In this document: positions 21,707-31,639 of the stretch, in pieces
Position numbering within the stretch: position 1 is the first letter of the stretch
Layout of the letters: each line of letters starts with the position of its first letter
From: Neisseria shayeganii 871
Lineage (GTDB): Bacteria > Pseudomonadota > Gammaproteobacteria > Burkholderiales > Neisseriaceae
Assembly: GCF_000226875.1 (NCBI RefSeq)
Contig: NZ_JH164926.1
Location: 2,290,135 to 2,322,134, forward strand
Direction: 5' to 3'
Length of the DNA: 32,000 bases
The notes under the pieces: model-generated
Seen by the model: only the letters and a program-made list of their open reading frames with translations
Told to the model about the DNA's origin: nothing
Database searches by the model: none
Position numbers and translations under genes: made by a program

Positions 21707-22795
21707 TCAATAACGGGTAACCGCCACCACGCCGTGCTCGGCCTGTTGCGCGGCCAAGCGGCCGTTATCGACAAATTTCACTTGGCCGCCGGCGGCCAGC
21801 ACTTTCTCAATCATCTCGTCCACGATGTCTTCATAAGTGCGCTCGGATGCGGTGAAACCTTCCGGCAACAGCGTGAGTTGGCGGCCGTCTTCGCTGACCT
21901 CGGCAGCCAGGCTGCTGTCTTCTTCCACCACCAGCATTTCCGCCCGGCCGTCGATGGCGGCCTGCCACACCTCGTTGAGGCTGTCGACAAAGCGGTGGTT
22001 GCTCTTGGCCGCTTCCAAATCGGCAAACACTTTTTCGCGCTCCTGGCTCAGGGCTTCTTTCACCTGCGGCCAAATATGCTGTGCCAGCTGATGCTCGCTT
22101 TCTTCGTTGTGGCCGCTGTGGATATACAGCATTACCTCGTCGCTGTTGCGCGCGCCTTCGCGGAAGTGGCCGATGTTGCGGTCCACGCCCACCACCACGA
22201 TGGGGGCGGGAATCTGTTTTTGCGCTTCGGCCAAAGCATCGCCGATTTCACGCATATTGTCGGCCACAATCTGGTCGCGCACATGGCTGATGTCCTGGCT
22301 GGGGCTGGCGCTGGCCACGGTGTTGGCCAGGCTGAAAGGGAAGCCGTAGGCGTGCACTTCGTTGAGCAGGTCTTTGCGGCCGACAAACAGGCGTGAGCCA
22401 TGCTCGCTCAATACGGTGAGCAAATACAGCGGGCTGCGGTTCATGGCATACACCAGATCGCGGGTAACGAAGTTGTCTTCAATGCTCACGCGCTCGGGCA
22501 CGCGGAAGGGCAGCTTGAACGACTCGCTGTATTCGGCGCTGGCAAAAATCACCAAGCCGTCGAGATTGTGCTCATGGTCCACCTCATCGGCCAAACGATG
22601 GATAGCGGCGGCGATATCCGCCGTTTCGCGTTTGCCGAACTCCTCTTCCAAGCGGGCAACCGCTTCGCTCACCAAGTTTTTCAGCCGAATGGGGTCTTTG
22701 TCGTTGTCGGGGGAAGTGCGGTAGGTCGGCAGGGTGATGGTCACACTCGGGTAAGCCTGCTTGCTTTGGATGTCTTTGATGGTGGCCAGATTCAT
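21707..22795 (-). CDS. eRF1-like protein of the bacterial archaeo-eukaryotic release factor (baeRF) type; function unknown
   Basis: 362 aa. The N-terminus (PSVTITLPTYRTSPDNDKDPIRLKNLVSEAVARL) matches, from memory, the ...vSiYlPThr.....qDpIrLKNLl.eA... opening of baeRF-family proteins. The C-terminus ends GVVAVTRY, like the G.aAiLRY end of eRF1/Pelota domain 3. Bracketed by DUS terminators. Confidence 0.6.
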   Translation of the reverse strand: MNLATIKDIQSKQAYPSVTITLPTYRTSPDNDKDPIRLKNLVSEAVARLEEEFGKRETADIAAAIHRLADEVDHEHNLDGLVIFASAEYSESFKLPFRVPERVSIEDNFVTRDLVYAMNRSPLYLLTVLSEHGSRLFVGRKDLLNEVHAYGFPFSLANTVASASPSQDISHVRDQIVADNMREIGDALAEAQKQIPAPIVVVGVDRNIGHFREGARNSDEVMLYIHSGHNEESEHQLAQHIWPQVKEALSQEREKVFADLEAAKSNHRFVDSLNEVWQAAIDGRAEMLVVEEDSSLAAEVSEDGRQLTLLPEGFTASERTYEDIVDEMIEKVLAAGGQVKFVDNGRLAAQQAEHGVVAVTRY

Positions 22796-23193: not shown

Positions 23194-24162
23194 CTATGCG
23201 GTTTTGGACGGAAGGCCGTATCTGGACGGATCGAAATCTTGACCGTTGTGCCAGAGATTCCAGGCGATGGCGGCCAGTTTGCGCATGAGTGCGACGAGAA
23301 TAACCTTTGTGGGCTTGCCTTTGGCTTTCAGCCTATCAACAAATTTGGCGAAAAAGCCGAAGCGATAGGCGACCAAAGCTGGCATATAGAGTTCGCCTTT
23401 CAAGATGCGGTTTCCGTATTTTGACAGGCGCTCTTTTCTGTTTACCGATGTACCGGATTTTTGCCATTGCGGAGCTAATCCGGCAAAGGCAATGAATTTG
23501 TTTTCGGTGTCAAAGCGGTACATGGTCAGATAATGTGCGAGAACTGAAGCGGTGGTTTGGCCAATGCCGGGAATGGTTTGCAGTTTGGCCGCTGCCTGCC
23601 TAGATTCCGCCTGCTCAGTCAAAGTAGCCAATTGCTCTTTGACTGCTTCAATGTGGTTTTTGAATTCTTCGGCCTGCTTGGCCAAGATGGTTTTTACAAA
23701 CGGATCTTTGGCCGTTTTGATGCGATTTTTGATGCCGGTTAAATCGCCCCTAAGCTGGCGGAACAGAGTAATGGCGCGACGCATGGCATACTGATCTGCG
23801 CTTGGCTTGACGTAATCTGGCTTTGGCTTCAAATCGCGACAATATTCCGCAATCAGCTTGGCATCTTGTTTGTCTGTTTTGGTGCGCTGAAAGCGGCTTT
23901 TGGCAAAAGATTTAATTTTCAGCGGGTTCACAACGCTTACAGGATAACCTTGTTCAACCATGAAATCGGCCAATCCTTCGTAGTAGACGCCGGTGGCTTC
24001 CATGCAGATATGCGGCTGGATTCCGAGCTCTTCGATCGCTGCCTGCGCTTTCAGGTAGCCTGAACGGTTATTACTGATCTGTAAATAGTGCTGTTTGTTT
24101 TCCAGCAACAAAAAGCATAAGTCAATTTTATCTTTTGAGACATCACAGCCAAGTATTGTCAT
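23194..24162 (-). CDS. IS110-family (DEDD RuvC-like plus Ser Tnp domain) transposase/recombinase
   Basis: 322 aa. Has ILGCDVSKDKID (first D), CMEATGVYY (E), KTDKQDA (D..D), a central coiled-coil region, IPGIGQTTA and AGLAPQWQKSGTS (conserved Ser). This is the classic IS110/IS1111 layout. AAGGAAAA RBS upstream. Confidence 0.9.
   Translation of the reverse strand: MTILGCDVSKDKIDLCFLLLENKQHYLQISNNRSGYLKAQAAIEELGIQPHICMEATGVYYEGLADFMVEQGYPVSVVNPLKIKSFAKSRFQRTKTDKQDAKLIAEYCRDLKPKPDYVKPSADQYAMRRAITLFRQLRGDLTGIKNRIKTAKDPFVKTILAKQAEEFKNHIEAVKEQLATLTEQAESRQAAAKLQTIPGIGQTTASVLAHYLTMYRFDTENKFIAFAGLAPQWQKSGTSVNRKERLSKYGNRILKGELYMPALVAYRFGFFAKFVDRLKAKGKPTKVILVALMRKLAAIAWNLWHNGQDFDPSRYGLPSKTA
24050..24061 (-). 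repeat. DUS inside the IS110-family recombinase coding sequence
   Basis: Exact TTCAGGTAGCCT (codons SGYLK on the minus strand). It is the only perfect DUS to the right of 23037. Confidence 0.85.
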
Positions 24163-24361
24163 ATGGAATTTTCCTTATATTCAGCTTTGTAGCTATTGAT
24201 AATATCCAATCTTAATGATTCCGGCGTCCAATCTGAAACCCAGCCTGAAGGCTTGGTGGCTTTACGGACTTGTGCCGGTCTTGCCGCGCAAGGCAAGGTA
24301 GCTGATAGTAGCAAGCAATTGCTGATAATTTAAAGGTTTTTTGGGCGTTCCCTTCGGGCAT

Positions 24362-24466
24362 GGCGGTGCGTTCTCGCCTGCGGTTATTTCAAACGATGGT
24401 TTACGTTTGAAAAACCTCCGACAACCGAACGCATTTTCCGCTGGATACATGCCCTGCGGGGCGGGC
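24362..24466 (+). repeat. Structured ~105-nt repeat, copy R1
   Basis: GGCGG box, a 9-bp stem TTTCAAACG/CGTTTGAAA (24387-24395/24404-24412) with an 8-nt loop, an AAAACCTCCGACAACCG box, and a second CCGC/GCGG hairpin. Confidence 0.75.
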
Positions 24467-24583
24467 TAAAATTCTGTAATTTCTCATGCTTGCAAAAACA
24501 GAACGGAGCCTGGGTCTCCGCCTCTTCAGGTCTATATCCCTAACGCATCTATTCCCACCCCGAGCAGCGGCCGCAGCGGCAAA

Positions 24584-24688
24584 GGCGGCATGCCCTCGCC
24601 TATGGTTATTTCAGGTGATAGTTTGCACCTGAAAAACCTCCGGCAACCGAGCATGATTTCCGCTGGTCTTTACCACTGCGGCCGCCGC
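24584..24688 (+). repeat. Structured ~105-nt repeat, copy R2
   Basis: Same architecture as R1. Stem TTTCAGGTG/CACCTGAAA (24609-24617/24626-24634). A gap-free hand alignment to R1 gives 70/104 identical positions. Confidence 0.75.
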
Positions 24689-24756
24689 TCACCACCCCAT
24701 TTTTTTTTATTTCTACAGGCCGGCAGGCGTTTGTGGGAGCAAGCCGCTACGTTAAT

Positions 24757-24950
24757 TTTTAAAGCATCAGTCCGGCTATCGGGTCTATGGGGCTGGTGCG
24801 ATTGAAGCATCCATAAAAAAGCAGTCAATACGGTATTCATAAAGAAATTCGTTGAATTTCTTTACAAAGCTTCCGTATTGACTGCTTTTTTATTCCTGCT
24901 TTTTCAATCGCGCCCCATACGACTCCGATAGCCGGACTGATGCTTTAAAA
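24757..24950. repeat. 194-nt nested imperfect palindrome (candidate packaging signal / minus-strand origin / bidirectional terminator)
   Basis: Outer arms are TTTTAAAGCATCAGTCCGGCTATCGG...CGATTGAA (24757-24806) and TTCAATCG...CCGATAGCCGGACTGATGCTTTAAAA (24903-24950). Inside is a perfect 19-bp IR, AAAAAAGCAGTCAATACGG (24815-24833) / CCGTATTGACTGCTTTTTT (24873-24891). The innermost IR is AAAGAAATT/AATTTCTTT (24841-24849/24855-24863). Confidence 0.8.
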
Positions 24951-25031
24951 AAAAACTTCGCTAACCGTTTTGCCCCTCCAACCCCTCCTACCGTCCTGAG
25001 GCGGGGAAAACCCAACCTGAAAGGAAAAGAC

Positions 25032-25376
25032 ATGGAAATCATCATCAAAGAAACCAACACCCGTGAAACCTTGTCAATTATTGACCACAAAACAGGCTGC
25101 AACTTTATCGCCGATTTTATTGGAAACACCGGCGCTCTAGATGATGGACAGTTTGAATGGAATGAAGAACAAAATGCCTATATCTGCAACCAAGAAACCT
25201 TCGACTGGTGGGAAAAGGTTATAAGCGACAATCAAGCGCTAGAAAATCGCATCGCCGAATTAATTGAGGAACACGGCTCAGATGCCGTCTATAAAGTCGT
25301 GGCCGATGCCGCCTACGGCGACCTAGAAGACCACGCAGCAATTATAAATTCTGAACTTGATGAAAATTTCAAATAA
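25032..25376 (+). CDS. Hypothetical very acidic small protein (114 aa; 26 D/E vs 7 K/R)
   Basis: ATG 25032 preceded by CCTGAAAGGAAAAGA. Low GC relative to the chromosome. Encoded on the strand opposite to all the phage structural genes. No family recognised. Confidence 0.6.
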   Translation: MEIIIKETNTRETLSIIDHKTGCNFIADFIGNTGALDDGQFEWNEEQNAYICNQETFDWWEKVISDNQALENRIAELIEEHGSDAVYKVVADAAYGDLEDHAAIINSELDENFK

Positions 25377-25398
25377 AAAAGCCCTGAAAGGAAAAGAT

Positions 25399-25665
25399 AT
25401 GAAAATTCTATACTTCTTAAGCCACGATGGAGACAACTATTTCATCACGAAAAGTTACAAAGAAGCAGTAAATTGGCAAGAAAGCCAAGAACTGAATTTT
25501 GCAACGGAGATTTGCTATGATGAAGATTTCAGAATCACACATATAGACCGGAACGAGATAGATTGGTTCGCAGAAAGCATATCCGATGAAATAGGAAGCC
25601 CCCAGTTCCAAGAGGCGAAAGAGATGCTAAACAAAGAATACGAATTCCCCGAAGAATTGAAGTAA
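25399..25665 (+). CDS. Hypothetical very acidic small protein (88 aa; 21 D/E vs 8 K/R)
   Basis: The internal ATG 25399 is preceded by the same CCTGAAAGGAAAAGA box as the upstream ORF. Followed by an intrinsic terminator at 25669-25690. No family recognised. Confidence 0.55.
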   Translation: MKILYFLSHDGDNYFITKSYKEAVNWQESQELNFATEICYDEDFRITHIDRNEIDWFAESISDEIGSPQFQEAKEMLNKEYEFPEELK

Positions 25666-25668
25666 CAC

Positions 25669-25690
25669 AGCCCCGGAAGGGGCTTTTCTT
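25669..25690 (+). terminator. Intrinsic terminator after the second acidic ORF
   Basis: AGCCCC-ggaa-GGGGCT followed by TTTCTT, 4 nt after the stop codon. Confidence 0.7.
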
Positions 25691-25742
25691 ATGAACCGTT
25701 ACCGTGACGGTAGCGGTTACCCACCCTGCCACACTCAAAAAA

Positions 25743-25846
25743 GGCGGAAGCCCTCGACTGCGGTTCTTTCAAGTGATGGCAGGCACTTGAAAAACCTTCG
25801 CCAACCGGACTTGTTCCGCATGGTCTTTTTCGAATGCGGCTTCCCA
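25743..25846 (+). repeat. Structured ~105-nt repeat, copy R3
   Basis: Same architecture as R1. Stem TTTCAAGTG/CACTTGAAA (25767-25775/25784-25792), with box AAAACCTTCGCCAACCG. Confidence 0.75.
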
Positions 25847-25924
25847 CCCGATATTATTTCTTTCTTAAATAACGAAAAATTTCACTAATAATCTGGGAGA
25901 TAATACGACGGATGATGTAGTTTT

Positions 25925-26986
25925 TCATGATTCGGGAGCCTTAATTGGCGTTACAGCCTGTCGTTCAGGCTCTTTGTAGGGATTGAACGGCAGGCCGTTT
26001 TCGGTATAGCTGATGCATAATTCGGTACTGATTTCGGCCAATTGCGTGCCTTGATCGCTGTAGCAGTTGCAGGAACTGCCGGAGGCGATGCAGCCGGCGA
26101 CGCGCTCGAAGGTGCGGACCTGGCGGACATTATTGTAAATAGGCTTGGATTCGGGCTTTTCGGCCAGCGTAGGGACGAAATCAGCAGGGCTTAGATTTTG
26201 GCTTTGTGCGGCGGTAAAGCCTTCCTGAGCCGTAGGCACATTGCCGCCATAGGCGGCTGTGGCCAGCGGCTCAGAAGCAGATTCAGCCACTGCTGCCGCT
26301 TCGCTGCCGCCGGTGGCGCCGGAATATGCGCCGTAGACGCCCCAAGCTTTCCAGCCGATGAAGGCGAGTATGGCGGCAAATGCCCAAACGACCAACGGCA
26401 CACGTTTTTTGAATTTTTGATGTTTGCTGGCTGATTTGTAGTATTTGAATGCTGCCTTTGGCGGCTTCCAAGATGCGGATTCCGTGCCGGACAGGCCGGC
26501 AGGATTATCAAGCGTGGTAACGCATTTGTACCACCAATACTGCTTCATGCCGACGGATTTTCGCTCAAGATGGATATGCTTTGAAACCAAATTACGCACG
26601 AATATATCCAATTGACTTGGATGCTGTGTCATGAGGATTAAGGTGAATCCGTCATGCCGCAGTTCGGAAAGTTTCTGCACATAGGGCGGCACGGCTTTGG
26701 CGGCGGAGCGAACGGGATACGTCCAATGCGCTTCATCAACAATTAAAACGGCACCGGTCGGCAGAATTTCATCCAGCGGGGCGGACTGAATTTCTTCCTT
26801 AGTCAATTCGTGGGCATGGAATTTGGCGGCATCCAAGCCGTCTATATGGCAGAAATATAAGGGGCGGTCTATTGGCGTGCCGTCTTCCGCGGTGGTTTTA
26901 AATAGGCCGTCTTCATTGGTCAGAATCATATTGACAGCACGACTGGTTTTGCCGGTGCCCATATTGCCGGTTATCAGGTAAATCAT
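25925..26986 (-). CDS. Zot-like / pI-type inovirus assembly ATPase
   Basis: 353 aa. N-terminal Walker A (ITGNMGTGKTS), Walker B-like LIVDEAH, and a central TM (VPLVVWAFAAILAFIGWKAWGVYG), which together give the Zot/pI architecture. Sits directly after the pVI-like gene. Confidence 0.85.
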   Translation of the reverse strand: MIYLITGNMGTGKTSRAVNMILTNEDGLFKTTAEDGTPIDRPLYFCHIDGLDAAKFHAHELTKEEIQSAPLDEILPTGAVLIVDEAHWTYPVRSAAKAVPPYVQKLSELRHDGFTLILMTQHPSQLDIFVRNLVSKHIHLERKSVGMKQYWWYKCVTTLDNPAGLSGTESASWKPPKAAFKYYKSASKHQKFKKRVPLVVWAFAAILAFIGWKAWGVYGAYSGATGGSEAAAVAESASEPLATAAYGGNVPTAQEGFTAAQSQNLSPADFVPTLAEKPESKPIYNNVRQVRTFERVAGCIASGSSCNCYSDQGTQLAEISTELCISYTENGLPFNPYKEPERQAVTPIKAPES

Positions 26987-27015: not shown

Positions 27016-27312
27016 TTATCTAGGCATGACAAAAGTAAGTTTGTTTAATGTGGTCATACTGATTCTGAAGGCAAAAGCACCGAACAGGTAGCCCAAGCCT
27101 TGACCGAATCCGCCAATCATTAACAGATTGAAGATATCGGCAGGCATGGAATTGGCGGCGTCAAGAATATAGGCTTTGAATTTGCCCAAAGCCAAAATGT
27201 AACCGCCGTAGGTGACGAAGGTCAGACCGGTGGCAATGATGATGCGGACAATCAGCAGTTTGAGCAGGATACCGATTAAAGGTATCAATGCGGCAGCAGC
27301 GGGCAGAGCCAT
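27016..27312 (-). CDS. Inovirus minor coat protein, pVI-like (DUF2523-type)
   Basis: 98 aa and almost entirely hydrophobic with 3 TM segments. Sits between the pIII-like and Zot genes, where pVI lies in Ff/CTX-type genomes. Confidence 0.6.
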   Translation of the reverse strand: MALPAAAALIPLIGILLKLLIVRIIIATGLTFVTYGGYILALGKFKAYILDAANSMPADIFNLLMIGGFGQGLGYLFGAFAFRISMTTLNKLTFVMPR

Positions 27313-27316
27313 GGCG

Positions 27317-28762
27317 TTATCCTTGTTTTAGACCGCCGAAAGAAATGTATGCGGCAGAGACGATGAAGCAGATCAGGACAATGAAACGGATGGTTTCCAT
27401 GAAGGAGCAGAGCGGCTGATACGATACCGATACGGGCTTGCCCATGACGTGAAAGGTTTTGGGTGCAGGACAAACGCCGGTTGACGGCAAGAACAAGTCT
27501 TCCTGCCATGTGCGGTTATCGACGTGAACGGGTATTTTGATATCGTCAAACTGGCCGGGATCGGGCTGCCCCATTTGCTGGCAGGCGAGTATTTCGGGAT
27601 GCTCTTTGCACAGGTCAAACGGGGGCGGTTGTTCAGTGCCGGTTTGATTGCCGGACTGGCTGCCGGATTGGCCGCCCGTGCCGGGCACAGTATCGCTGCC
27701 GTTGGCCGGCGGATTATCAGGAGCCGGAGCTTCTGGGCTGTTGGGCTGAAGATCGGGACGATCAATTAAGGTTTCCTGAACGCAAGATTGGCCGTCATCA
27801 CAATCGTAGAATTGCCAACGCGCCTGCTTGGCTTTGCCGTCTTTGGAATCGGTGTAGGGCTGGCTATTGACGATGGTGCCGGGCAGAACGTGGACTTTTG
27901 GCTGCGACCATTCGGAATCCGGCAACTGGGCGGCTTCGAGGATGGCTTCCGGGCGCTGCTGGAGGAGCGGGGAGACAATGCGCTCATATTCGGCGGGCGT
28001 GAGCAGACGATTCGGATTCCTGACGACATCCCAACTGTAAAAATTACGCTCATCATTACCGAGGGCGACAACGCAAGACCCAGTCTCAACGCCATCATAC
28101 CTGAGATATCTGTATCGCTGATAATTAGGCAACGATGGTTTGATAATATCCCAAGCATCACGGCACAGCTGATCGACAACAACACCGTAGTTAGATATGC
28201 CGAGATTGGACACCATGCCGCGCTGTTTGACGAGATGGATTTTACCCGCATTGCCAATGGTATACACACGGACCAAATACTCGGAGGACGACAAAAATTC
28301 ACCGCTGGCGTCGTCATATTGATAGCCGTCGTCTTCGAGCATAGTCAGGATTTCGCCGAGGATGAGGCCGCCGACAAGGCCTTGCGGTGTGAGACGGGCG
28401 AGCTTGGTGCGGCTCAGGAGATTGCGGAGAACGGTGGCTTTGGGGACGGTACGGGAGATGGTGGCGGGGACTTTGGCGCTAGAGACTGCGCCAGAGGTGG
28501 CAGAGCGGAGACTTAAAGATTCAGCAGTGCCATGAACATAATTACCACCGATAACCTTAGCTGTGATAATACCATTAGGGCGAGAACTAATAACACCTGC
28601 TAAACGAACGTGACCATCAGGAGTTTTAATTAGCCCTAATTCAGCAAATGCTTTAGATGGGAATAGACATAAAATAACCATCGGCAGGACGAAATATATT
28701 AATTTCACTCTTTCCGATAATAAACGAAGAGCGGTCAGAAAATAGAATTTCAAAAGTCCCAT
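27317..28762 (-). CDS. Inovirus adsorption/minor coat protein, pIII-like
   Basis: The largest structural ORF. Has an N-terminal signal-like segment (KLIYFVLPMVILCLFPSKAFA), a Pro/Gly/Ser/Gln linker (PEAPAPDNPPANGSDTVPGTGGQSGSQSGNQTGTEQPPP) and a C-terminal membrane anchor (IRFIVLICFIVSAAYISFGG). The start is uncertain: ATG 28828, ATG 28762 (used here), GTG 28708 and ATG 28681 are all possible. Confidence 0.6.
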   Translation of the reverse strand: MGLLKFYFLTALRLLSERVKLIYFVLPMVILCLFPSKAFAELGLIKTPDGHVRLAGVISSRPNGIITAKVIGGNYVHGTAESLSLRSATSGAVSSAKVPATISRTVPKATVLRNLLSRTKLARLTPQGLVGGLILGEILTMLEDDGYQYDDASGEFLSSSEYLVRVYTIGNAGKIHLVKQRGMVSNLGISNYGVVVDQLCRDAWDIIKPSLPNYQRYRYLRYDGVETGSCVVALGNDERNFYSWDVVRNPNRLLTPAEYERIVSPLLQQRPEAILEAAQLPDSEWSQPKVHVLPGTIVNSQPYTDSKDGKAKQARWQFYDCDDGQSCVQETLIDRPDLQPNSPEAPAPDNPPANGSDTVPGTGGQSGSQSGNQTGTEQPPPFDLCKEHPEILACQQMGQPDPGQFDDIKIPVHVDNRTWQEDLFLPSTGVCPAPKTFHVMGKPVSVSYQPLCSFMETIRFIVLICFIVSAAYISFGGLKQG

Positions 28763-28949
28763 ATTTATCCGACACTTTACTATAAAAATTATGCACTTTT
28801 TCAAGCTCAAAAATAGAGCCTGTTTCAAAAGTCAAATAAACAACCTGATAAAACACCCACGCCAGCGGCTTACCCTGAAACTGCGGCTCAAACGAGCGGT
28901 GCATCAATTCGTCTTCGCTGATGTAGAAATAACCTTCTTCGGGGAACAT
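28653..28949 (-). CDS. Hypothetical phage protein (98 aa)
   Basis: ORF with ATG at 28947-28949. Its 3' half runs into an AT-rich patch and overlaps the possible 5' end of the pIII-like ORF. No family recognised. Confidence 0.4.
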   Translation of the reverse strand: MFPEEGYFYISEDELMHRSFEPQFQGKPLAWVFYQVVYLTFETGSIFELEKVHNFYSKVSDKYGTFEILFSDRSSFIIGKSEINIFRPADGYFMSIPI

Positions 28950-28999
28950 GGTTCATCCTTTCGTTAATTGTTAAGAAACGTCAGGAATGTACCACAGTT

Positions 29000-29071
29000 T
29001 CAATCTTTGAACAGCATCACGCCGATCATGGCGACGAAGGCGAAGCCGACGAGAAAGTAAAAGTCAATCAC
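29000..29071 (-). CDS. Candidate 23-aa hydrophobic peptide (pVII/pIX-like minor coat candidate)
   Basis: Not in the ORF track because it is too short. GTG at 29069-29071 lies 3 nt after the preceding stop and is preceded by GAGG. Hand translation is VIDFYFLVGFAFVAMIGVMLFKD. Size, position and hydrophobicity resemble the tiny inovirus tip proteins. Confidence 0.3.
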   Translation of the reverse strand: MIDFYFLVGFAFVAMIGVMLFKD

Positions 29072-29876: not shown

Positions 29877-30200
29877 TCAGCCTTTCTTTTGTCCTTCCGG
29901 TACACGGAAATCTTTAATCACGACGGTTTCTTTACCGCTGCCGTTGGTGACGCGGGCAAGCTGGATTTCCAACTCGCAAGGGAAAACCAAGCCGCGGAAG
30001 CGTTCGAAATTGCTGCTGTCGCCGAAACGGACTTTGGCGAGACCCAAGCCGAGGGCGTTGCCGGAAGCGTCATTGAACGGTGCGGCTTTGAAAACGGTGC
30101 AACTGTCGATGATGTTGCCTTCGATTTCGCCCTTAAATTTGGTTACGCCCATGACAATGGCGCGTTCGAATACGGGCTGTTGGAGCATGTCAAAATTCAT
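29877..30200 (-). CDS. Candidate ssDNA-binding protein (pV-like, by position and size)
   Basis: 107 aa. Its start overlaps the Rep stop (ATGA-type overlap at 30197-30200). This is the same position and size as gene V/ORF2 in Ff- and Nf-type inoviruses. No motif-level confirmation. Confidence 0.45.
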   Translation of the reverse strand: MNFDMLQQPVFERAIVMGVTKFKGEIEGNIIDSCTVFKAAPFNDASGNALGLGLAKVRFGDSSNFERFRGLVFPCELEIQLARVTNGSGKETVVIKDFRVPEGQKKG

Positions 30201-31639
30201 GATGGATTCCTTTCTAGAGAGACAATTTCAGGTTCTGGGATATAGGTGGGATACTCTTGTTTCCGAATCAGCGATTCGGCAATATGGCCGGCCTGCTGAA
30301 GGCGTTTGCGAGCTTCGATTTCTTCATACAGTGCATGGCATTCAGCATCGGTGGGCATGTATTCATCAATCGTCATGCGGAATTCGTCCAAATCGAAGGG
30401 CGCAAAACCGTCATGGTGCAAATAGTGAACCCTGATGGCATCGCAGTTATATTCGGACGGATCCAGCCCTTTCGGGTATTTGCCTTCATCGGCCACCAGA
30501 CGGCGGACGATTTCCGAATCGGGGAAACCGGCATCCACGAGAAAACGGACAAAGCGGCCGACTTGGTTTCTGGCATGGAATTCCCGCTGTTCGAAAGTGA
30601 GGTTCACCACATTGGCTTTAGTTTCAATACGATTGGCCGCTACCTGAAACAGTTCTTCACCGATCGGGAAAGCACCCGTCAAATACTGACCCGGCTTAAT
30701 CAAAATATCGTGCGGTATCACACAATCATGTTTGCGGAACTCGACTTCGAAGCGAACCCACGGGCTGGACTTGTCGCCGAACTTTTTGCCTTTCTCGTAA
30801 ATGCGCGCTAGCTTGGACGAGCCTTTGCGACCGATGTAAAGCGTTTTGCCGGAACCATCTTCAATATTCCAGGCAGTGCCGCGGCATTCGGCTTTAGGTG
30901 TAACGTTATGGTTGTCGTAACGGCCTTTTTTGTGATCAACCAAAGCCTGATCAGGCGTGTATTCGCCGTTGAAAAAATCATGGGCCACATCGCAACGGGT
31001 AATGCGCGGTTTGATCGCCTGTTGCAGGAACTCATACAAACGGCCTTCCCAACCGGGCAGGGCGGCTTGGCAGCCGACGGCATTTAAATCAATCAATACG
31101 GTGTTACGTTGACCGCCGTGATGAAGCGTGCCGTATGCCGCGTTATCGGGGCCGATTTGGTAATAAGCCTGATAGAAGAACTTGCCTTTACCAAGCATTT
31201 TTTTGGTAATGCCGAAACCGAAGATTTTTTCGAGTGATTCGCTACAGGCGGAAATAAAATCGTTTTGGCCGACCAGACGGTTTTGCAGGTAGTGAAAAAT
31301 GGTGTCTTCGTGAAAAGTGAAGGTGAGGTAGTCAATCAGCGCACCGTCTTCACGGCCTTTACGCAAGGGAATTTCAAGAAGGTTGCCTTTGGCGTCGGTA
31401 ACGTAGGTTTGGAAATATTCGGTGGTTTGAATATTGGCCCAGTCGATTTGCTCCCCCGCTGAAGGTTTTTGGGTTTCTTGCTCCCCCCCTGTTAGCCTAG
31501 GGGGGGCATCTGCCGCCGCTGCCGCGTCAGCCGCCGCTAAGCGGCTGTCTGCCGCGTCATCTGGCGGCAGATACTTTGATGCGGCAATGACAACATCAAT
31601 TTCGGCGGCATCCGGTAAGGTGTTTCTTGTGCGAGACAT
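30197..31639 (-). CDS. Rolling-circle replication initiator (RstA / Rep_trans-like)
   Basis: 480 aa. Has RCDVAHDF, YIGRKGSSKLARIYEKGKKFG and WVRFEVEFRK blocks typical of the replication-initiation-factor family used by CTX/Nf-type inoviruses. The N-terminal ~60 aa are low-complexity and Ala/Asp-rich. Confidence 0.75.
   Translation of the reverse strand: MSRTRNTLPDAAEIDVVIAASKYLPPDDAADSRLAAADAAAAADAPPRLTGGEQETQKPSAGEQIDWANIQTTEYFQTYVTDAKGNLLEIPLRKGREDGALIDYLTFTFHEDTIFHYLQNRLVGQNDFISACSESLEKIFGFGITKKMLGKGKFFYQAYYQIGPDNAAYGTLHHGGQRNTVLIDLNAVGCQAALPGWEGRLYEFLQQAIKPRITRCDVAHDFFNGEYTPDQALVDHKKGRYDNHNVTPKAECRGTAWNIEDGSGKTLYIGRKGSSKLARIYEKGKKFGDKSSPWVRFEVEFRKHDCVIPHDILIKPGQYLTGAFPIGEELFQVAANRIETKANVVNLTFEQREFHARNQVGRFVRFLVDAGFPDSEIVRRLVADEGKYPKGLDPSEYNCDAIRVHYLHHDGFAPFDLDEFRMTIDEYMPTDAECHALYEEIEARKRLQQAGHIAESLIRKQEYPTYIPEPEIVSLERNPS

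Follow-up and report, generated by a model that had tools for sequence, protein, structure and literature searches.

The DNA considered here, hereafter the window, is a stretch of 32,000 nucleotides from Neisseria shayeganii 871 (NZ_JH164926.1, positions 2,290,135 to 2,322,134) that carries a filamentous prophage (inovirus) of the Nf/MDA type. In the slot between the zot gene and the transposase gene of this prophage, two small open reading frames (ORFs) are read antisense to the phage genes, all of which lie on the minus strand. ORF-A (25032-25376, plus strand) encodes a protein of 114 amino acids (aa) with 26 D/E against 7 K/R residues and an isoelectric point (pI) of 4.08, and ORF-B (25399-25665, plus strand) encodes one of 88 aa with 21 D/E against 8 K/R and a pI of 4.29. 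Their GC contents are 42.6 and 38.6%, respectively, compared with 51% in the rest of the phage and 61.9% in the adjacent chromosome (10-22.5 kb). An initial annotation, made from the letters alone, had described two small, very acidic, low-GC ORFs antisense to the rest of the inovirus, a description that is borne out by composition, pI, GC and gene orientation. It had also raised the idea that both proteins are DNA mimics or anti-defence factors, possibly anti-CRISPR proteins (Acrs) acting on type II-C systems. This idea has gained ground for ORF-B through its homology and predicted fold, which connect it with AcrIIC5, an Acr directed at type II-C Cas9, whereas what speaks for it in the case of ORF-A is association. 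In our interpretation, which draws on sequence comparison and structure prediction, the pair is probably a small operon with an anti-defence role, most likely against CRISPR, inserted antisense in the prophage.

The two-gene cassette

A 24-nt box, CCTGAAAGGAAAAGA(C/T)ATG(G/A)AAAT, spans the start of both ORFs, as CCTGAAAGGAAAAGACATGGAAAT for ORF-A (25016-25039, plus strand) and as CCTGAAAGGAAAAGATATGAAAAT for ORF-B (25383-25406, plus strand). The window has exactly these two copies, with none expected from 100 shuffles. The 15 nt of the 5′ part contain a strong Shine-Dalgarno sequence, which in the box of ORF-A includes AAAGGA 6-7 nt 5′ of the ATG. The final 8 nt are coding, and they are alike partly because both protein families begin with M-K/E-I; the real duplication is the 15 upstream nucleotides, those that the initial annotation had singled out. 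None of the 14 loci that were compared contains the 16-nt core of the box, and therefore it is not a portable cassette junction. The two-gene operon is closed by the intrinsic terminator that had been proposed (25669-25690, plus strand; AGCCCC-GGAA-GGGGCT followed by TTTTCTTAT), the stem of which (25669-25684) has 6 pairs, 5 of them G-C, and a 4-nt loop preceding the T-run. An alternative TTG start of ORF-B at 25357 is unlikely, as all relatives begin with MK(T/I)LYF. The identical arrangement of the cassette is found in three metagenome assemblies, and a text search for signature peptides gave nothing relevant. Neither ORF has a match in Pfam, NCBIfam or PADLOC, and neither shows a helix-turn-helix (HTH) DNA-binding domain in the library searches, in agreement with what had been noted from the letters.

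ORF-B and the AcrIIC5 family

A word-indexed homology search with ORF-B returned only ORF-B itself, and tblastn gave no match in GenBank phage genomes. When the single sequence was compared by phmmer with the Protein Data Bank (PDB), AcrIIC5Nch (8f3k) was the sole match (E 0.0094), aligned in two collinear blocks. An exhaustive HMMER search of 1.8 billion representatives yielded 3 relatives of 89-90 aa with 36-41% identity to ORF-B. The resulting four-sequence profile matched AcrIIC5Nch (8f3k, E 9.2e-12), again in two collinear blocks, as well as AcrIIC5Smu of Simonsiella muelleri, both in the free form (8jb9, E 4.7e-5) and in complex with Nme1Cas9 and single guide RNA (8hj4 chain C, E 5.2e-5). 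Searches with this profile brought up 12 family members, all of them acidic (pI 4.1-4.7), and those with a name are annotated as hypothetical proteins, in Haemophilus pittmaniae, [Haemophilus] felis and Pasteurella multocida. AcrIIC5Nch itself has no relatives among IMG/VR contigs.

The same family is reached from the predicted structure. A template-free AlphaFold2 model built from the family alignment (predicted local distance difference test, pLDDT, 94.7; predicted template modelling score, pTM, 0.82) consists of four strands and three helices. In a Foldseek search of the PDB it matched 8f3k (TM 0.73) and 8hj4_C (TM 0.74), both with probability 1.0, the next match having a probability of 0.06 and nothing significant being found beyond the AcrIIC5 entries. 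By these two independent routes, sequence profile and predicted structure, ORF-B is almost certainly homologous to AcrIIC5, which it also resembles in acidity (pI 4.39 for AcrIIC5Smu against ~4.3) and in being carried by a phage of Neisseriaceae. The earlier remark that the proteins could be placed in no known family no longer applies to ORF-B, for which the structure search that had been recommended leads to the AcrIIC5 entries.

What, then, distinguishes ORF-B from AcrIIC5? AcrIIC5 proteins have ~125-130 aa and five helices, compared with 88 aa and three helices. In the profile alignment, residues 1-28 of ORF-B correspond to ~3-35 of AcrIIC5 and residues 29-82 to ~70-126. The ORF-B model retains helix 1, the two C-terminal helices and the four-stranded sheet, and helices 2-3 are missing. 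This short form is represented by at least 11 distinct intact sequences with 35-43% identity and with invariant acidic residues at E59, D63 and E64 of ORF-B, found in Pasteurellaceae and Neisseriaceae; judging from these alignments, it is a conserved lineage whose members are intact and acidic, no one-off damaged copy. A 119-aa member, P0048, retains the insert and bridges the short and long forms. We classify ORF-B as a new short variant of the AcrIIC5 family, in which homology and predicted fold are present and the hairpin that reaches the phosphate-lock loop of Cas9 is missing.

AcrIIC5Smu is a mimic of double-stranded DNA (dsDNA), with a pI of 4.39, that blocks recognition of the protospacer adjacent motif (PAM) by type II-C Cas9, and its helix-turn-helix (aa 22-52) is inserted at the phosphate-lock loop (PMC9976890). 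The mechanism of ORF-B is most likely the same: it would occupy the cleft for the PAM duplex in guide-loaded type II-C Cas9 so as to prevent PAM recognition and DNA binding, and this block would protect the phage both as double-stranded replicative form and as integrated prophage. We regard inhibition of Cas9 by ORF-B as probable, on the strength of homology and modelled fold, and the following points weigh against it. AcrIIC5 residues ~31-69 have no counterpart in ORF-B by profile coordinates (the gap is ~33 residues by MAFFT), and the ~33-39 residues that are missing make up most of the helix-turn-helix of AcrIIC5Smu. With this tip ORF-B lacks the hairpin bearing D36/E37, by which AcrIIC5Smu engages the phosphate-lock loop; the D36A/E37A double mutant of AcrIIC5Smu loses both binding to and inhibition of Nme1Cas9 (PMC9976890). 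Further contact residues of AcrIIC5Smu, R16, E26 and D97, are replaced by Y14, V24 and W56 in ORF-B. Since the D36/E37 hairpin is absent, the short form could be inactive on Cas9 or act on another target.

These losses are what would be expected if ORF-B descended from AcrIIC5 but no longer inhibits Cas9, mimicking DNA for some other defence or host protein instead or retaining little activity. In favour of this alternative are precisely the missing equivalents of D36/E37, which AcrIIC5Smu needs for Nme1Cas9, and the several further contact residues that are not conserved. We nevertheless hold it to be unlikely. The short form is a conserved lineage with invariant E59, D63 and E64 and with a compact fold that is confidently predicted, and its members stay in loci of the acr-aca type (see below). 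They occur, moreover, in Pasteurellaceae and Neisseriaceae, where type II-C Cas9 is common. As for the contacts themselves, E100 of AcrIIC5Smu, which like D97 touches the PI domain of Cas9, corresponds to the invariant E59 and is the one kept among R16, E26, D97 and E100; the equivalent of D97 is W56 in ORF-B and D in most of its relatives. Single mutants of AcrIIC5Smu at the remaining contact residues have no obvious effect (PMC9976890).

If ORF-B does inhibit Cas9, it probably binds in another mode or acts on a different set of Cas9 proteins than AcrIIC5Smu, because it has no phosphate-lock-loop hairpin. Its spectrum would then be different from that of full-length AcrIIC5 and might include Cas9 variants that escape AcrIIC5Smu via the phosphate-lock loop. 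A conserved short AcrIIC5 without the essential hairpin would mean either that the DNA-mimicking core suffices on some Cas9 proteins or that the scaffold has been retargeted; either outcome would illuminate how this Cas9 off-switch works, and a smaller inhibitor could be useful.

In being small, very acidic and borne by a phage or plasmid, both ORFs are also like AcrIIA2, AcrIIA4, AcrF2, Ocr and ArdA. Acrs and anti-restriction proteins that mimic dsDNA take up the site at which a defence nuclease binds DNA (PMC9976890). The folds of these five proteins are absent from the Foldseek results of both ORF models, so that the resemblance is one of functional analogy only.

ORF-A and the loci of the relatives

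ORF-A has 35 homologues with 47-65% identity, the named ones being from a Neisseria metagenome-assembled genome (MAG), Pseudoalteromonas and Pasteurella testudinis, and almost all of its relatives are strongly acidic. Its AlphaFold2 model (pLDDT 94.7) has an N-terminal sheet followed by three helices. No significant Foldseek match to this model was found in the PDB or among BFVD folds, and nothing was found in Pfam, PHROGs, NCBIfam, PADLOC or PDB sequence profiles; the initial failure to assign a family thus persists for ORF-A, in structure as in sequence. Three members of the family, P0009 (L007, 6001-6558), P0012 and P0032, have a C-terminal extension of ~70 residues (185-186 aa in all), which is unrelated to ORF-B.

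In what company are the relatives of the two ORFs found? Both families occur mostly in tailed phages rather than in inoviruses. ORF-A relatives are located in Mu-like prophages, in integrase-proximal regions of tailed prophages, in lambdoid tailed phages and in a Pseudoalteromonas island, and ORF-B relatives adjoin integrases or are situated at the tail-gene end of tailed prophages. A co-oriented regulator module lies within ~1.5 kb downstream in 15 of the 27 IMG/VR contigs that have an ORF-A relative, and such modules are also seen beside ORF-A relatives in L001 and L004-6; in L007, an Aca10-like gene begins 12 nt downstream. A profile of the HTH proteins encoded downstream of ORF-A relatives matched 7xi5 (E 2.1e-19), which is Aca10 (PMC9410881), and Aca3 (9vt3, E 2.5e-8).

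ORF-B relatives are followed by regulators of the same kinds. The 69-aa HTH type encoded 3′ of ORF-A relatives (L004-6, L042-46, L058-59) is also encoded in L063 and L064, there 3′ of short-form relatives of ORF-B (E 1e-18 and 4e-17), small HTH genes come after the ORF-B-family members P0039 and P0045, and HTH and ribbon-helix-helix (RHH) genes come after P0041. A module encoding proteins of 123, 222 and 64 aa, the last of them an RHH protein, follows the ORF-B relative of a tailed H. pittmaniae prophage (L012-14) and likewise ORF-A-like genes in L052-55 and L057; its 222-aa protein combines HTH motifs with a domain matching an HNH endonuclease in the PDB (9kja, E 1e-25). The long-form P0048 lies directly upstream of an Aca2 gene (PF08965), and it was directly upstream of aca2 that AcrIIC5Smu was discovered (PMC6282205).

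An ORF-A-like gene is also present in another inovirus, D_HF2_82 from human saliva (OR148981.1; L035, 2422-3688), where it encodes 129 aa with 37% identity and is located just downstream of the morphogenesis genes. It is followed by genes for a 218-aa protein with HTH and HNH-like parts and for a 63-aa RHH protein, 60 and 56% identical to the last two proteins of the L012 module. This phage is thus like the prophage in the window in being an inovirus with an ORF-A-like gene, and unlike it in that the gene is co-oriented with the phage genes and followed by a regulator pair and that there is no AcrIIC5-like gene.

As far as gene order and sequence similarity indicate, the relatives of ORF-A and those of ORF-B are interchangeable as the first gene in regulator-anchored loci of the acr-aca type. 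These are like the acr-aca operons acrIC7-acrIC6-aca10 of Pseudomonas citronellolis and acrIIC5-aca2 of S. muelleri, and multi-acr loci share with the window the arrangement of two small acidic genes in one operon. A small gene in front of an Aca regulator is accepted, through guilt by association, as the signature of an acr gene (PMC6282205), a signature that gives no proof of a CRISPR target. The initial annotation had suggested looking for homologues either next to aca-like HTH genes or in the same slot of other Neisseriaceae inoviruses: the former exist, in other phages, and the slot of related Nf-type inoviruses is short or has other content.

The copies in the window depart from this pattern. 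Members of the ORF-A family stand directly upstream of an Aca-family regulator and in the same orientation, and the window copy does not; ORF-B is on a mobile element, the inovirus, without the adjacent aca2 that AcrIIC5Smu has, even though its relatives do have aca-type neighbours. Unlike the acr-aca operons, the operon in the window ends in a terminator without a regulator gene. In exchange, ORF-A adjoins ORF-B, an acr homologue, in one operon, and ORF-A-like and ORF-B-like genes alternate before the same regulators. Relatives of both were found together in no other locus among those fetched, so the pairing is specific to this phage.

ORF-A is on this association a candidate for a new anti-defence or anti-CRISPR family, and we think that an anti-defence role for it is probable, to judge from its relatives and their surroundings; it would inhibit a further defence target, or that of ORF-B by a different route. 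Its family is widespread and acidic, with a fold that is confidently predicted but unmatched, and the regulators that it has in common with the AcrIIC5-like family make it a good new candidate. It might instead be no anti-CRISPR protein, being a general DNA mimic directed at restriction-modification or at another host DNA-binding protein, or a helper or regulator of its neighbour. This view draws on the strong acidity of the whole family, on its span, at 50-65% identity, over Neisseria, Pasteurella and Pseudoalteromonas, which suggests a broadly conserved target, and on the lack of similarity to any solved Acr. It is a possibility to be taken seriously, though the less probable one, as ORF-A relatives are repeatedly the first gene before Aca10- and Aca3-like regulators and before the regulators of the AcrIIC5-like family.

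A further reading compares the pair with the antisense rstR region of CTX and takes it for a regulatory, immunity or superinfection-exclusion module of the phage. The antisense orientation beside an intergenic region would suit such a module, and some hypothetical proteins of inoviruses exclude other phages (Roux et al., PMC6813254). However, DNA-binding domains, HTH or other, are lacking in the two proteins, both are strongly acidic with a pI near 4, ORF-B is homologous to an Acr, both families are found mainly in tailed phages, and related inoviruses do without the cassette, which places it outside core phage regulation. We therefore consider this reading very improbable, and the rstR-type analogy drawn in the initial annotation does not apply. 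That the ORFs have no function, as hitch-hiking DNA or as reading frames open by chance, is hardly credible. Their low GC and the lack of a promoter in a simple scan would be compatible with it, but it would leave the conserved homologues of both in many unrelated elements, the very confident structure predictions, the matched strong ribosome-binding boxes with a shared terminator and the identical cassette in three metagenome assemblies without explanation.

For the preferred interpretation, that of an anti-defence operon, there are also points on the debit side, apart from those given above for ORF-B. Upstream of ORF-A, a consensus scan detected no sigma-70 promoter that is clear. The window has no aca gene, and no Aca10-like gene in particular, so that expression may be constitutive or controlled in trans. 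Nor is there a cas gene, cas9 or a CRISPR array within its 32 kb. ORF-A is unlike any named Acr with a solved structure and any anti-defence family in the libraries searched, and as its family occurs in Pseudoalteromonas too, its target may not be Cas9.

The carrier prophage, its insertion and its repeats

The gene set of an Nf/MDA-type inovirus is complete in the window, and all of it is encoded on the minus strand: the Rep_trans initiator (30197-31639, by Pfam/PHROG annotation), the Inovirus coat B gene, which stands between Rep_trans and the TspB-like gene in the phage gene order, the TspB-like adsorption protein (27317-28828), the DUF2523 minor coat protein (27016-27312), the Zot/pI morphogenesis ATPase (25925-26986; Pfam Zot, E 6.6e-44; PHROG 197) and the IS110-family (Piv/irg-type) transposase that is the integrase of Nf-type inoviruses (23194-24162; Pfam DEDD_Tnp_IS110, Transposase_20). 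The last two genes bound the slot of the cassette. Both gene set and gene order are those of the Nf/MDA filamentous prophages of Neisseria, and related viral contigs, with Zot identities of 42-86%, have the same order from zot to transposase. The difference is in the slot, which in the related contigs examined is short or has other content and in the window holds the antisense two-gene cassette and extra palindromic units. Housekeeping proteins encoded in the window fall into clusters of ≥90% identity together with those of Neisseria shayeganii and an Eikenella MAG.

On the matter of how filamentous phages deal with CRISPR, the inovirus survey of Roux et al. is instructive: ten candidate Acr proteins from Pseudomonas inoviruses were tested and none was active, and it was proposed that inoviruses rely on the Acrs of co-resident phages (PMC6813254). 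As that survey found no active inovirus Acr, an inovirus with an AcrIIC5-like gene of its own is worthy of note, without any claim that it is the first, and the prophage provides a concrete, testable inovirus-borne candidate.

The origin of the cassette is apparent from comparison with a related inovirus contig (L034), in which zot is followed by ~150 nt, a 215-nt hairpin and then sequence matching 24462-24560 of the window, with no cassette. Homology between the two reaches ~25000 on one side and the inside of the 3′ end of zot on the other, and therefore a segment of ~950 bp (~25005-25960) is extra in the window and was gained by insertion. The segment (25005-25960) comprises ORF-A, ORF-B, the terminator and a palindromic unit (D1c, described below), and it replaces the 3′ end of zot. 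The Zot protein of the window is ~30-40 residues shorter at its C-terminus (25925-25990) than those of L034 and a second contig (L027); the cassette insertion, as far as the alignments tell, apparently replaced the C-terminal tail of Zot. In related Nf-type contigs, only a short spacer or else other content separates zot from the transposase gene. One of them (L021, 3815-4021) has a different small acidic ORF in the slot, of 68 aa with 11 D/E against 6 K/R. Accessory genes may generally use the slot between zot and transposase as a landing site.

The 215-nt hairpin is long and imperfect (24746-24961) and lies in the intergenic region of the phage, 55 nt upstream of the box of ORF-A. As single-stranded DNA (ssDNA) it folds with -87 kcal/mol (z -17.6). 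The copy in L034 (442-650) is 85% identical to 24789-24979 of the window with the structure kept (z -15.6). The hairpin is an ancestral feature of this phage lineage and probably serves as packaging signal or complementary-strand origin. An Rfam scan of the prophage region revealed no described RNA family, and none that would fit an IS110-type bridge RNA; a match of MIR841 to the hairpin is far below the gathering score and reflects the hairpin alone.

Where might transcription of the cassette start? The best candidate by eye is a weak extended -10 element, TGcTTTAAA (24941-24949). A TTGACT-N19-TTCAAT pair in the right arm of the hairpin was rejected as the promoter of ORF-A for its poor spacing, and the better-spaced TTGACT-N16-TTCAAT with TG on the minus-strand arm is read towards the transposase gene, away from ORF-A. 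The packaged strand of an inovirus usually has the sense of the phage mRNAs. With all phage genes on the minus strand, the mRNA of ORF-A and ORF-B would by this rule be the complement of the single strand that enters the cell. In Ff phages, the complementary-strand origins recruit RNA polymerase, as do the single-strand promoters in the leading regions of plasmids, and the latter drive early anti-restriction genes. If the 215-nt hairpin recruited RNA polymerase in a similar manner, the cassette would be expressed before any double-stranded target of Cas9 exists. There is no convincing promoter in the right orientation, so the single-strand-promoter idea stays at low probability. The full combination, in which a minimised AcrIIC5 inhibits type II-C Cas9 without the hairpin tip, ORF-A represents a new family and both are transcribed from incoming ssDNA, is by analogy conceivable and quite improbable; if true, it would give us an inovirus with an anti-CRISPR of its own.

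Three copies of a 69-nt repeat core (D1) bracket the cassette, against 0.02 expected by chance: D1a at 24359-24427, D1b at 24581-24649 and D1c at 25739-25807. Bracketing repeats, R2 and R3, had been noticed initially. D1b lies at the core of a palindromic unit that is 125 nt long and has GAGCGGCGGCCGCAGTGG termini, and D1c at that of a ~110-nt palindromic unit between the terminator and zot. The three palindromic units of 110-130 nt extend over 24335-24465, 24555-24695 and 25715-25850 and share the core hairpin GGTTTTTCA-NNNN...NNNN-TGAAA(T)AACC, with compensatory changes at the apex of the stem (AACG/CGTT, GGTG/CACC, AGTG/CACT). The GC-rich terminal inverted repeats of the middle unit and the absence of this unit from L034 make it look like a small mobile element of the MITE or REP kind. 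The D1 core is absent from IMG/VR. Two of the units are located within the non-coding leader of the IS110-family transposase gene (24163-24700, minus strand). It is in the non-coding leader of the transposase that IS110 elements encode their bridge RNAs.

Some other genes in these elements and their surroundings are described here for completeness. The 123-aa protein of the regulator module mentioned above (L012, 750-1118; L052, 5430-5801; L057, 3069-3437) is encoded between the variable first gene and the gene of the 222-aa regulator. It has a weak profile match to AcrIE10 structures (E 0.013) over nearly its full length, a hint rather than a finding, and may be a further Acr in these loci. 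Directly adjoining the end of the prophage in the window is a gene for a 362-aa protein of baeRF_family3 (bacterial eRF1-like; 21707-22795, minus strand), of which near-identical copies are present in N. shayeganii and in the Eikenella MAG. Within the prophage, a 98-aa ORF without a family match (28653-28949, minus strand) overlaps the start of the TspB-like gene in a low-GC patch (39% over 28501-29000); it is called as a gene in metagenome copies of the prophage and may be another acquired accessory gene.

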